The notes beneath the pieces were generated by a model. It ran no database searches. It had not been told where the DNA came from and saw nothing but the letters and a program-made list of their open reading frames with translations. A program made the translations under genes and the position numbers. Positions 1 to 4,697 of a stretch of 4,898 nucleotides of DNA are shown here, piece after piece. The stretch's first letter is position 1, and each line of letters begins with the position of its first letter. This stretch comes from a virus (taxonomy: Duplodnaviria; Heunggongvirae; Uroviricota; Caudoviricetes): IMG/VR virus record IMGVR_UViG_2778261453_000012, one strand, 5' to 3'.

Positions 1-584
1 GATACTGCCTCAGGTAATGCGTCCACCACCTGATTGCAGACTGCCCACCAGGATAATTCAGCCAGCGATAATTCCCGCTCCTGCGTGCCATTCATTACAT
101 GGCGTATGACGTCAATCATCCAGGCTGTCAGATTTTGTTGAGTAAGTTGCTCAAGTGATTCGGAGGTCTGGTCGCGCAGCTGGTTGTCGCAGTGCCAGCA
201 CAACACCATTGCGCCAGCACCGTAACTGTGAATAACGGTTTCGCTGTGATGATAATCGCCGTGTGGCCACTGGCAGGATTTCACGTGACGTAATAACCAG
301 TCAGACAGTGCACCAGCGCCGCCAGCTGCACGAATCACCCGCTCATCGCTGAAAAATGGCAGCAGTGATTTATCTTCCGCCAGCGGCTGGCGAACAGTAG
401 GAACCGCTCCAGATGGCAGCGCCCGCATGTTTTTCGGTTCCGGCTCCACCAGCACCCTGCCGCGATGAAAAACTGGCAATGATTCACGACCGGGCTTAAG
501 GACCACCAGCCCGAGTTCCGGAACCAGAACAGGTCGAAGTAATACCCGCACATTACCTCCAGACGCGCTGACGGTAGCAGGCAT
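1..584 (-). CDS. Hypothetical protein, N-terminal 194 aa in window (3' end beyond left edge); contains a Cys/His cluster (C104, H108, H112, H113, C129, H131, C132), possibly Zn-binding/HNH-like; possibly the continuation of the 553..825 ORF after a frameshift
   Basis: Hand translation of the minus frame with codon at 582-584 (ATG): no TAA/TAG/TGA down to position 3. Begins MPATVSASGGNVRV..., includes ...RHVKSCQWPHGDYHHSETVIHSYGAGAMVLCWHCDNQ.... The frame is open upstream to a TGA at 636-638. Weak SD (GGA) before the ATG. Absent from the ORF track because there is no in-window stop. Confidence 0.45.
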   Translation of the reverse strand, partial: MPATVSASGGNVRVLLRPVLVPELGLVVLKPGRESLPVFHRGRVLVEPEPKNMRALPSGAVPTVRQPLAEDKSLLPFFSDERVIRAAGGAGALSDWLLRHVKSCQWPHGDYHHSETVIHSYGAGAMVLCWHCDNQLRDQTSESLEQLTQQNLTAWMIDVIRHVMNGTQERELSLAELSWWAVCNQVVDALPEAV

Positions 585-825
585 GTGTCCGTGGCAGATG
601 TGCACGAACAGGAAGATATACAGAAACGGTCCAGGTCAGACGATCAGCGTTCAGACTCCGCTCCACACGGACACCGCGACGCAGATACGCCTCTTGAAGC
701 ATATCTGCCTCATCGATCGTACAGAACAGATAGTGAAACCAGCCATACTGAGGCGCACGAAAACGCCTCCCCTGCTTAATTTCCGGGTCGGCTTCAGAAT
801 TGTGGGATTTTATGTGTTGTGTCAT
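553..825 (-). CDS. Hypothetical 90-aa protein, or the N-terminal part of a frameshifted larger gene that continues in the 1..584 frame
   Basis: ATG at 823-825 preceded by GGAG with 6-nt spacing (ccGGAGaatccgATG) and by a candidate promoter. Translation MTQHIKSHNSEADPEIKQGRRFRAPQYGWFHYLFCTIDEADMLQEAYLRRGVRV... is protein-like at the N-terminus. Confidence 0.45.
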   Translation of the reverse strand: MTQHIKSHNSEADPEIKQGRRFRAPQYGWFHYLFCTIDEADMLQEAYLRRGVRVERSLNADRLTWTVSVYLPVRAHLPRTHACYRQRVWR

Positions 826-1348: not shown

Positions 1349-1403
1349 GGGTGCGTTGAGGATGCCTGACACATCAGAGGTGGCGGGAGATTACTCCCCC
1401 GCC
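1349..1403 (-). promoter_or_regulatory. 3' elements of the hok transcript: fbi-like box (1349-1361, CCUCAACGCACCC on the RNA) and a 3' stem-loop (1382-1403)
   Basis: The fbi-like box is complementary to the predicted mRNA 5' end GGGUGCUUGAGG (plus 1724-1735), 12 bp with one bulged C. The stem-loop GGCGGGGGAG-uaau-CUCCCGCC lies just after the hok stop and has no U-tract, so it is not a classic terminator. Confidence 0.45.
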
Positions 1404-1410
1404 TGGTCTC

Positions 1411-1566
1411 TTACTTCTCAGATTCGTAGTCTACGAAGACAGCGACCTCCGTCTGACCGGTTCGGATTCGCACCTCGCAGAGGTCTTTCCTCGTTACCAG
1501 TGCCGTCACTATGACGGTTAAACAGATGACGATCAGGGCGATTAACATCGCCTTTTGCTGCTTCAT
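1411..1566 (-). CDS. hokD: Hok/Gef family type I toxin (51 aa small membrane toxin), closest from memory to HokD/RelF
   Basis: MKQQKAMLIALIVICLTVIVTALVTRKDLCEVRIRTGQTEVAVFVDYESEK: hydrophobic TM segment followed by the conserved TRKDLCEV.IR.G..EVA.F motif of Hok proteins. SD AAGGAG about 8 nt upstream of the ATG at 1566. Confidence 0.85.
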   Translation of the reverse strand: MKQQKAMLIALIVICLTVIVTALVTRKDLCEVRIRTGQTEVAVFVDYESEK

Positions 1567-1623
1567 AGCCTGCTTCTCCTTGCCTTTCGGCACGTAAGAG
1601 GCTAACCTACATGTGTTCAGCAT
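1411..1623 (-). CDS. Mok-like leader reading frame (70 aa), in-frame N-terminal extension of hok starting 19 codons upstream
   Basis: ATG at 1621-1623 with upstream AGG (ctgAGGctcaatccATG). Extension MLNTCRLASYVPKGKEKQA precedes the hok Met. No start codon exists in the alternative frame that is open across hok. Confidence 0.4.
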   Translation of the reverse strand: MLNTCRLASYVPKGKEKQAMKQQKAMLIALIVICLTVIVTALVTRKDLCEVRIRTGQTEVAVFVDYESEK

Positions 1624-1692
1624 GGATTGAGCCTCAGATTAATGTTAAGCGTCTTGCAGGACGCGTAATGTTAACTGGGGCTTTTCTCTATC
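1615..1692 (+). ncRNA. Candidate Sok-like antisense RNA (about 70-80 nt), antisense to the hok leader and mok start
   Basis: Plus-strand candidate promoter -35 TTGCCT (1580-1585), 17-nt spacer, -10 TAACCT (1603-1608). Downstream imperfect inverted repeat 1633-1680 (outer stem CCTCAG/CTGGGG, inner GCGTC-ttgcag-GACGC, flanked by 9-bp direct repeats TAATGTTAA) followed by CTTTTCTCT. Position and length match what is expected for Sok. The -10 is weak. Confidence 0.35.
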
Positions 1693-1770
1693 TGCCGTTG
1701 GTGTTCATGCCCGAGGCAGATAGCCTCAAGCACCCGCAGCAATTCTACTTAACTATCCTTTTCCCGCAAA
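1688..1770 (-). promoter_or_regulatory. hok promoter and 5' leader: -35 TTGCGG (1769..1764), 16-nt spacer, -10 TAGAAT (1747..1742), predicted TSS near 1735, tac-like 5' box (1735..1724), leader stem with 9-bp perfect inverted repeat (1688-1696 / 1715-1723)
   Basis: Elements read directly from the sequence. The predicted transcript 5' end GGGUGCUUGAGGCUAUCUGCC resembles my memory of the R1 hok mRNA 5' end (GGCGCUUGAGGCUUUCUGCC). Confidence 0.45.
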
Positions 1771-1856
1771 CCGTTTTTATCCCCAGCGGCAAATCGAATA
1801 CACCACCAGCGCCACCGCCATCGCAATTCCTACCGTTGTGAATGCTTCAGGCCAGG

Positions 1857-2414
1857 TCATTGATTCACCTCCTGCGGCGGTTCTGGTAGCGACATCCAGT
1901 GGGTTGCTTGCCTAAGATCATTACCCGGACTAACTGCTATACCTCCGCGCCGGAACGTGCCTCCGAGATAGCGTGCGGAATATATTAATGGCCCAGCCTC
2001 GCTATCGATATTCATCGAAATAAGCACGTTCTGGCTCTTTTCAGGCATTCGCTCAGTACAGCTTATCCAGCCATCCAGAGTTATCGGAGATCTGGTTGAC
2101 GTTTCCGAGATTTCCCGAAAATTGTTGGTTGACGAATTCTTATTTTCCCGAAAGTTTCCGGCCTGAAGCATGGCGACGCGGCAGGCGTTCCAGCCATCAG
2201 CATATGTTTTAGTTACACCGTCGAGATGGCAGGTAAGCAAATCCATTTCATCAGGCACTACCATTGCTATCGGCTCTGCTTCCAGTGATGCCAGCGCGAT
2301 ACGAAACACATTAGCCAGCAGGCTGTCTGAAGACTTGTTATCGTGCGCCGAGTCGCTCAGGAAGCCTGTGATGTATGATTTAATCTCCGCGCGTTCTCTG
2401 GTAATAGTGCTCAT
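1857..2414 (-). CDS. DUF551-type prophage protein, 185 aa (variable N-terminal domain plus C-terminal DUF551-like domain)
   Basis: C-terminal region ...DGWISCTERMPEKSQNVLISMN...ATHWMSLPEPPQEV matches the W-I-S-x-x-E-R-(L/M)-P-E ... T-H-W-M-P-L-P-E-P-P signature I recall for DUF551. ATG at 2412-2414 is one nt after the stop of the upstream gene, with AAGGA inside that gene's 3' end. Confidence 0.75.
   Translation of the reverse strand: MSTITRERAEIKSYITGFLSDSAHDNKSSDSLLANVFRIALASLEAEPIAMVVPDEMDLLTCHLDGVTKTYADGWNACRVAMLQAGNFRENKNSSTNNFREISETSTRSPITLDGWISCTERMPEKSQNVLISMNIDSEAGPLIYSARYLGGTFRRGGIAVSPGNDLRQATHWMSLPEPPQEVNQ
2094..2159 (-). repeat. Imperfect tandem duplication of a 33-bp (11-codon) unit inside the DUF551-protein gene
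   Basis: ggttgacg at 2094-2101 and again at 2127-2134; tttcccgaaa at 2111-2120 and 2144-2153. Protein-level repeat NFRENKNSSTN / NFREISETSTR in the inter-domain linker. Confidence 0.55.
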
Positions 2415-4266: not shown

Positions 4267-4697
4267 TACACGCTCATGACATCAGACACGGTGACGATAA
4301 TCACGCTGCGCCCCTTCGCCATCAGCCGGTTACCCATCGCCGCTGCAAGGTGATTTTTCCCGGTGCCGGTTTTACCGCTGAACACAAAATTCGTGCACCC
4401 GGTCATCAGTTCGTCAGCTATGGATTTGGCCTGGCTCAGCGCGTATTTTTGCCCGTCGTTCTGCACCTGATAATTCGCAAACGAGCATTTGCTGTGCAGA
4501 GGCTGGATGCCCGAACGATTCAGGATTTTTTCCACCCGCAACTGGTGATTCTGGCGGTTAATCTCCTCGCTGCGTTTTCGTCCTTCAACAAGTTGCCATT
4601 CCCGCCACTCCTCCACCGTCCGGTACGGTGGAACCGACGCCTGTGGTGCAAGTCTGCGAATACGTTCAAGAACCCCGGCTGCCGCAATGTTTTTCAT
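4266..4697 (-). CDS. DnaC-family replicative helicase loader homologue, truncated: 143 aa covering the N-terminal region and Walker A only
   Basis: ...[73 protein letters not shown] aligns to E. coli DnaC (NCSFENY...[18 protein letters not shown]...GKSVLIITVADIMSAM) as I remember it. The ORF ends with TAG where DnaC continues about 100 more residues (Walker B DLLVIDE absent). SD AGGGGG upstream. Confidence 0.75.

Follow-up and report, generated by a model that had tools for sequence, protein, structure and literature searches.

SokW, the known antisense antitoxin of a hokW/mokW module, as the highly probable plus-strand RNA opposite the mok start of an Escherichia coli lambdoid prophage

The locus considered here raises the question whether the strand opposite a mok start codon gives rise to a small antisense RNA of the Sok kind and, if so, whether such an RNA is a new one. 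The whole stretch of DNA that was analysed, referred to as the window, comprises 4,898 nucleotides of a virus record assigned to the Caudoviricetes (IMGVR_UViG_2778261453_000012). A first-pass annotation made from the letters alone had proposed a Sok-like RNA of 70-80 nt on the plus strand, starting near 1615 and consisting of a 5' tail and a terminator hairpin. With a probability of about 95%, the plus-strand segment from 1615 to 1685 or 1691 is SokW, an antitoxin RNA encoded in cis and antisense within the type I module hokW/mokW of an E. coli lambdoid (Stx-phage-like) prophage. The plus-strand element is already known and not new, as sokW was annotated in 1999 and demonstrated experimentally in 2021. 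All defining features of a Sok RNA that could be tested were found in the window element, which is the already named sokW.

The minus strand of the window carries an intact hok/mok mRNA (1411-1735). The toxin gene hokW (1566..1411) encodes 51 amino acids (MKQQKAM...DYESEK), is listed in RefSeq as WP_000813258.1, 'Hok/Gef family protein', and equals hokW of phage 933W. It is contained in frame in mokW, a reading frame of 70 codons (1411..1623, minus strand; ATG at 1623-1621) located at the same position as mokW of 933W. The 5' leader of the hok mRNA (1561..1735, minus strand), extending from the +1 position (GGGUGCUUGAGG) to the hok AUG, features tac, ucb, the mok Shine-Dalgarno sequence GAGG (1635..1632) and the Sok target. 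It matches the Rfam family RF01794 (1735..1561, minus strand) over the full length of the model (1-157) with 113.5 bits and an E-value of 3.7e-26, the gathering threshold being 59; other Rfam matches, ceN48 and sR2, stayed below threshold and are attributed to chance. Upstream of the leader, the sequence suggests a putative hok promoter (TTGCGG-16 nt-TAGAAT; 1742..1769, minus strand) which is located 6 nt upstream of G1735 and was not called by the sigma-70 scan. A fbi-like 3' element, CCUCAACGCACCC (1349..1361, minus strand), is complementary to the 5' end of the hok mRNA, and duplex prediction as well as a full-length fold predict a fold-back of the tac/fbi type in which the 5' end pairs with this element at 1361..1349. 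Inside the leader, a target hairpin of -13.4 kcal/mol is predicted (1598..1635, minus strand), with the mok AUG in the stem and a 7-nt loop, CUGAACA (1620..1614).

Although RF01794 bears the name 'sok antitoxin (CssrC)', the model describes a 157-nt leader of the hok strand up to the hok AUG and not the Sok RNA. In K-12, its match lies at 654-502 on the minus strand, opposite to the curated sokC at 553-611 on the plus strand, and the same relation was found in an IncFII plasmid locus whose Hok is identical to that of R1. Since the family is on the hok strand, the match in the window marks the hok leader and merely implies a Sok on the other strand. Because matches of this 'sok' model fall on the hok strand, automated pipelines will mis-strand or miss the Sok RNA. 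The RefSeq entries at these loci give 'Hok/Gef family protein' only, without a mok or sok feature.

The identity of the opposite-strand RNA follows from records in which it is annotated. The 933W record AF125520.1 includes mokW, hokW and a misc_RNA, 'SokW antisense RNA', which correspond to 1411-1623 (minus strand), 1411-1566 (minus strand) and 1615-1685 (plus strand) of the window, respectively. The 441-bp stretch around hok is shared at 100% identity with many STEC chromosomes, among them O157:H7, O103, O121 and O145, and at 99.3% with the Stx2 phages 933W and VT2-Sakai/Sp5. Three of these 441 positions (1403, 1658 and 1755) differ between the window and 933W, and the sole difference within Sok is 1658 in the apical loop, with A in the window and C in 933W. 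SokW of 933W/Sp5 shares position, strand, start (1615) and promoter with the window element, and 70 of the 71 nt of the annotated sokW are identical. Likewise, the curated K-12 ncRNA sokC starts 8 nt inside mokC, as in the window, and aligns with 1615-1691. Annotation and homology place the 5' end at G1615, a nucleotide shared by all of 25 distinct long-hairpin loci, and the 3' end between 1685 (933W annotation, 71 nt) and 1691 (sokC-homologous, 77 nt). An RNA of this extent spans both the mok ATG (1623-1621) and the mok Shine-Dalgarno GAGG (1635-1632), so that the claimed antisense position relative to the mok start is correct. Moreover, the start called from the raw sequence was within one nucleotide of the annotated sokW start. 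The coincidence with 933W sokW, with the aligned position of sokC and with the published experiments, including the Northern probe discussed below, bears out start, length and the 'tail plus terminator hairpin' architecture as first proposed.

The experiments were carried out on the Sp5 copy of the module. Takada et al. (2021) studied hokW-sokW of Sp5 and found HokW to be toxic and sokW under its own promoter to be protective (PMC8621323). The antitoxin activity was lost in a 'promoter-less' sokW mutated in the -10 element, and sokW on a second plasmid partially restored growth in trans (PMC8621323). In Northern blots, sokW RNA was detected and vanished rapidly after mitomycin C, with the hokW mRNA persisting, and the protection by sokW depended partially on RNase III and Hfq (PMC8621323). 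Furthermore, hokW/sokW reportedly times lysis and approximately doubles phage release on induction of the Stx2 prophage Sp5 (PMC8621323). Matching of the oligonucleotides from this work (PMC8621323) by script relates the data to the window: the Northern probe YO-592 is the exact antisense of 1615-1644, and the RNA detected therefore belongs to the plus strand; primer YO-421 alters 1603, 1605, 1608 and 1609 and thereby converts TAACCT(A) into GAGCCG(G); and the trans-complementing fragment corresponds to 1563-1717. The published sokW oligonucleotides match the window exactly save for the intended mutations, and the only mismatch of another primer, at 1403, lies outside Sok. The window copy differs from the Sp5 copy by A instead of C at 1658 and, outside Sok, at 1403 and 1755. 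A strand-specific Northern blot (1620-1690) and an inactivation of the promoter, which the first-pass annotation had suggested as checks, were thus already performed in 2021 on a copy that differs by one base of the loop.

The prophage that surrounds the locus is a defective lambdoid element different from 933W and Sp5. Compared to an otherwise 99.9% identical prophage, it features a 389-bp deletion at 4268/4269 which truncates a DnaC-like gene and a DUF1627 gene, i.e., part of the replication genes is lost. A search of phage records with the whole window resulted in patchy matches only (24-30% coverage), which points to a mosaic prophage and not to a sequenced free phage. The locus could be regarded as a decaying remnant in which Sok is perhaps made and the module is idle, as proposed for several chromosomal hok loci. 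The defective state of the prophage, with its deletion in replication genes, is in line with decay, and so is the finding of Pedersen and Gerdes that chromosomal hokA, hokB and hokC show no post-segregational killing, as quoted in the citing passage of a recent preprint (bioRxiv 10.1101/2025.08.07.668861). Nevertheless, the promoters, the leader with its 113.5 bits, the mok and hok frames, the fbi element and Sok are all intact, no more than 3 of 441 positions separate the locus from the functional one of Sp5/933W, and the same 441 bp are conserved to 100% in many STEC genomes. An idle remnant is therefore considered unlikely, and a complete hokW/mokW module with its SokW remains the preferred reading.

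The promoter of this RNA had been proposed as the plus-strand pair TTGCCT (-35; 1580..1585) and TAACCT (-10; 1603..1608) with a spacer of 17 nt. Both hexamers are found at these positions and are backed by conservation, homology and the published mutation of the -10 element; the bare pattern of these weak hexamers, by contrast, is not above chance. The relaxed form TTG-N20-TA-N3-T occurs 3 times in the window compared to 1.86 expected occurrences, a count equalled by 61 of 200 shuffles, and was consequently dropped as independent evidence. A sigma-70 scan of 1300-1900 called no promoter, including the TTGCCT-17-TAACCT pair. This outcome is ascribed to the weak -10 element, in which three of six positions agree with the consensus, and is not counted as evidence against the RNA. 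The -35 element overlaps the antisense of the hok Shine-Dalgarno sequence AAGGAG and, judged by homology, would be functional. Its counterparts in the alignment are TTGCGC of the IncFII locus with the R1-identical Hok and TTGACC of K-12 sokC, and the entire pair comes to lie under TTGCGC-17-TATCCT of the same IncFII locus. The motif 'CTCCTTG' is retained in nearly all of 44 distinct loci. Nearly all variants of the -10 element (TAACCT, TAATCT, TATCCT, TACCTT and cACTCT) preserve its second position as A and its sixth as T, and 54 of 131 fetched loci carry the exact 29-nt promoter. It is conservation, together with homology to the R1 sok promoter, and not the hexamers by themselves, that supports the assignment of this pair as the putative sok promoter.

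Folding of the RNA 1615-1692 yielded -33 kcal/mol compared to -16.7 +/- 3.3 kcal/mol for shuffled sequences (z = -4.9), with none of 200 shuffles being as good, and the imperfect long inverted repeat noted in the first-pass annotation hence forms a hairpin above chance. The 5' recognition tail (1615..1630, plus strand) is single-stranded, with its nucleotides unpaired or weakly paired in the minimum free energy fold, and runs antisense both to the mok start codon (CAT, 1621-1623) and to the hok target loop; in the predicted fold, this loop, CUGAACA, is complementary to GUUCAG, the first six nucleotides of Sok. The terminator-type stem-loop (1629..1683, plus strand) combines a lower stem and one bulge with a middle stem rich in A/U and a GC stem at the apex. 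The base of the hairpin, folded as GCCUCAG/CUGGGGC, is antisense to the mok Shine-Dalgarno GAGG (1635..1632), and the stem base GCCUC/GGGGC is followed by the U tract UUUUCUCU, whose interruption is a point against the assignment. The T-rich stretch noted behind the inverted repeat is present as CTTTTCTCT at 1681-1689, and the U-rich tract TTTTCTCTAT (1682..1691), which is conserved throughout the family as CTTTTCTCTAT or CTTTCTTCTAT, is the presumed termination site. A simple scan for intrinsic terminators in 1300-1900 called none, due to the long and bulged stem, and this is not counted as evidence against the RNA either.

A second reading holds that the hairpin is selected mainly as part of the minus-strand leader of the hok mRNA, where it would be the second stem-loop of the Rfam model and the fold of the plus strand a mere mirror image of little importance for Sok. 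The consensus structure of RF01794, which refers to the hok strand, does have a hairpin at this place, and Watson-Crick covariation is blind to strand. The energies of the stem-loop are, however, -29.5 kcal/mol on the Sok strand and -19.1 kcal/mol on the hok strand, and K-12 sokC shows the same bias (-21.6 vs -10.9 kcal/mol). G·U pairs cause this strand-specific structure, which is about 10 kcal/mol better on the Sok strand: the conserved U·G and G·U pairs of the plus strand turn into A·C mismatches in the hok mRNA, flagged as non-canonical by cmscan. Besides, the plus-strand RNA exists (PMC8621323), and the two roles are compatible with each other. Selection mainly in the hok leader is thus very unlikely. 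In 26 distinct family members from Escherichia, Kluyvera, Photorhabdus, Erwinia, Pantoea, Citrobacter and of the R1 type, the lower and middle stems are paired to 98.4%, compared to 38-50% in slid controls. The shared stems include four compensatory pairs, e.g., A-U/G-C at 17:8 and G-C/A-U at 14:11, and a U·G pair is invariant in 26/26 members, with two such pairs in 13/13 members of the long type. Taken together, fold energy (z = -4.9), strand asymmetry and covariation speak for the Sok architecture of a 5' tail, one stem-loop and a U-rich end.

Inside the hairpin, the first-pass annotation had pointed to two 9-bp direct repeats flanking a palindrome and had considered a protein-binding site. 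Both copies of TAATGTTAA are present (1640-1648 and 1666-1674), and so is the palindrome, with GCGTC at 1649-1653, ttgcag, and GACGC at 1660-1664. In the fold, the first copy is the 5' arm and the second copy the 3' arm of the middle stem, in which seven A-U and two G·U pairs join UUAAUGUUA to UAAUGUUAA, and the palindrome forms the apical stem. Repeats and palindrome are the arms and the tip of an RNA hairpin, and the suggestion of a protein-binding site is left without support. Such a site, for a dimeric regulator such as a prophage or host repressor of sok or hok at 1640-1674, would fit the dyad symmetry and the flanking repeats, which are real, and the invariance of the stem arms around a variable 6-nt spacer (diversity of 0.45 at 1658) is a pattern compatible with an operator; a RecA-dependent block of sokW transcription after mitomycin C was moreover proposed by Takada et al. 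(PMC8621323). Still, the RNA hairpin accounts for the whole arrangement, and the repeats pair only by means of G·U, i.e., as plus-strand RNA and not as an inverted repeat of DNA. In Kluyvera and other relatives, the pairing is kept by exchanges from G-C to A-U at the apical base and from A-U to G-C in the middle stem. In addition, the element is located 25-60 nt downstream of the sok start and approximately 70-95 nt downstream of the hok start, over neither promoter, and a binding protein is neither known nor suggested by any of the results. A regulator site is therefore highly improbable. The interpretation as a transposon target-site duplication, with 9-nt repeats around a 17-nt palindromic insert, was rejected, as excision of the insert and one repeat would leave a hairpin shorter than in any family member, self-complementary arms based on TTAA suffice to explain the repeats, and the insert ends are not known to match an IS end.

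The tip of the SokW hairpin is what sets this RNA apart from its shorter relatives. The apical extension GCGTC-TTGCAG-GACGC-GT (1649..1666, plus strand) comprises 18 nt which appear as a gap in the alignment of K-12 sokC and R1-type sok, and shows up as an insertion of 16 nt in the match to the Rfam consensus. It accounts for the length of 71-77 nt compared to 59 nt of sokC. The extended stem comprises 24 pairs in three segments parted by a bulge and a mismatch. The long-hairpin class offers only two pairs in which both partners have changed, each seen in a single sequence, and its shuffle control was uninformative; owing to this low variation, the case for the apical extension is made mainly by thermodynamics and near-invariance. 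Of 5426 complete E. coli genomes, 4245 (78%) contain the extended hairpin, with 8478 places in total. Variants of the apical loop include TTGCAG, TTGCCG and TTGTAG, and also CTGCAA, the reverse complement of TTGCAG.

Beside SokW of 933W/Sp5, the closest known system is SokC of K-12 (b4413). The two share the start 8 nt inside mok, a mok in frame with hok, the first 9 nt (GUUCAGCAU), the hairpin base GCCUC...GGGGC and the 3' tract CUUUUCUCUAU. SokC, however, is an RNA of 59 nt with a short hairpin and the -10 element cACTCT, whereas the window element features the 18-nt extension, a different position of the bulge and TAACCT; moreover, the tails diverge from position 10 on. Sok of the R1 parB locus is likewise cis-antisense over the mok initiation region, with a homologous promoter whose -35 element overlies the hok Shine-Dalgarno sequence. 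It is likewise composed of a 5' tail, a single hairpin and a U-rich end, and its partner mRNA shows the tac/fbi architecture. Differences concern the short hairpin of R1 Sok with a GAAAA-type loop, its unrelated tail sequence and the frames, as mok and hok of R1 are in different frames and those of the window are in frame. HokW is 44% identical to R1 Hok (PMC8621323).

In the R1 paradigm, Sok binds the processed hok mRNA and blocks translation of mok and thereby the coupled translation of hok, and the duplex is cleaved by RNase III (PMC9841398, PMC8621323). By homology, this pathway may be carried over to the locus of the window. A sigma-70 promoter, weak and constitutive, would lie within the first codons of mok, its -35 element covering the hok Shine-Dalgarno sequence, and would initiate transcription at G1615. 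The resulting Sok would consist of a single-stranded 5' tail of about 15 nt, a long hairpin with a bulge, and a U-rich end. Its tail would be complementary to the loop CUGAACA and to the 5' arm of the hok mRNA hairpin that carries the mok AUG. Following the R1 model, pairing would begin at the loop and grow to a full duplex, which would block mok translation and hence the coupled translation of hok and would be cut by RNase III. With a short-lived Sok and a stable hok mRNA, a loss of sok transcription, caused by loss of the element or, as in the case of Sp5, by induction of the prophage, would then free Hok. In other STEC prophages, copies like that of the window may work as hokW/sokW of Sp5 does.

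The comparison of long-hairpin loci further revealed an uneven distribution of variation. Among 25 distinct loci, the pairwise diversity amounted to 0.324 in the Sok 5' tail compared to 0.023 in the hairpin, 0.040 in the hok coding sequence and 0.050 in the sok -10 element. Despite differing loops, the target hairpin is predicted at about -12 kcal/mol in 24 of the 25 sequence variants. As far as can be judged from these sequences, this suggests that the Sok tail and the loop and stem of the hok target may be a hotspot of diversification among near-identical prophage modules whose promoter, long hairpin and Hok hardly vary, with antisense specificity possibly diverging between co-resident prophages. 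R1 hok is not silenced by chromosomal Sok RNAs (PMC9841398). Judged by counts per genome, one O157:H7 genome contains five long-hairpin loci, of which only one has the tail of the window. A tentative extension of this idea, which we would sooner doubt than adopt, is that co-resident lambdoid prophages might possess mutually orthogonal Sok/hok specificities and that the 18-nt extension might tune the turnover of Sok. If true, the orthogonality would be comparable to the way in which antisense loops define plasmid incompatibility groups, every prophage would retain a switch of its own for addiction or for the timing of induction, and the extended stem with its 24 pairs would, by its length, be a conceivable substrate of RNase III. 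Up to 4 identical tails within one genome count against this reading, and so does the weak coding constraint on the tail region.

In all, 609 genomes contain the exact combination of -10 element and tail found in the window, at 708 places (median, 1 per genome). Besides, tiny contigs labelled as Acinetobacter, Xanthomonas and one MAG carry hok loci identical to those of E. coli, which probably reflects contamination.

The 5' tail of the Sok antisense RNA (1609-1630, plus strand), compared with the homologous positions in the fetched hok/sok loci L004-L130, is hypervariable among prophage loci that are otherwise almost identical. Among the 25 distinct long-hairpin loci, which feature an 18-nt apical extension of the Sok hairpin, its pairwise diversity amounts to 0.324, as opposed to 0.023 for the hairpin and 0.040 for the hok coding sequence. 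In 24 of the 25 variants, the target hairpin of the hok mRNA retains a stability of about -12 kcal/mol. The exact tail of the window occurs in approximately one copy per genome, and long-hairpin loci reach up to eight per genome. This pattern may reflect orthogonal Sok/hok specificities between co-resident prophages. On the opposite strand, the stretch of the tail represents the loop and the 5' arm of the target hairpin.

Variation was also found in the 6-nt apical loop of Sok (1654-1659), for which the comparison, including the loci L098, L025 and L026, revealed the variants TTGCAG, TTGCCG (phage 933W), TTGTAG and CTGCAA. The latter, being the exact reverse complement of TTGCAG, has the appearance of a spacer inverted between the arms of the palindrome, as made by template switching. 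In the 3'-UTR of hok, a hairpin of the form GGCGGGAGA-uuac-UCCCCCGCC (1382-1403, minus strand) is closed by a G-C pair in the window, whereas 933W and Sp5, both Stx2 phages, feature G·U at this position (1403, C vs T). The window locus departs from the functional locus at just three positions, of which this is one.

The Rfam model RF01794 ('sok antitoxin') covers not the Sok strand but that of the hok mRNA leader, beginning at the mRNA +1 and reaching as far as the hok AUG. It matches the window at 1561-1735 (minus strand, hok mRNA leader); likewise, in the K-12 locus (L003) the match at 502-654 (minus) lies opposite the curated sokC at 553-611 (plus). Pipelines relying on this model will place Sok on the wrong strand. 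In the PGAP/RefSeq annotation of L001 and of the near-identical prophage of strain 2013C-3264 (L131), a 'Hok/Gef family protein' is the sole feature at the locus, with neither a mok CDS nor a sok ncRNA present; the GenBank record of phage 933W from 1999 features mokW, hokW and sokW. Furthermore, hok/sok sequences nearly identical to the E. coli prophage locus (95-98% at the DNA level for L023 and L050; 91-100% at the level of Hok for L015, L023 and L050) were found on very short contigs (L015, 275 bp; L023, 431 bp; L050) labelled Acinetobacter idrijaensis, Xanthomonas pisi and a 'Candidatus Scatousia' MAG. Most likely, these represent assembly contamination rather than horizontal transfer.

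Immediately upstream of the putative hok promoter ends an unannotated hydrophobic ORF of 27 codons (MTWPEAFTTVGIAMAVALVVYSICRWG; 1777-1860, minus strand), the start codon of which shares the sequence ATGA with the stop codon (TGA) of the DUF551 gene upstream. Judging by its sequence, it may be a gene for a small membrane protein. Compared to the elsewhere 99.9% identical prophage of strain 2013C-3264, 389 bp are missing at 4268/4269 (L131 4570-4958). With this deletion the junction at which the DUF1627 gene meets the replication gene for a DnaC-like ATP-binding protein is lost, which probably renders the prophage of the window replication-defective.
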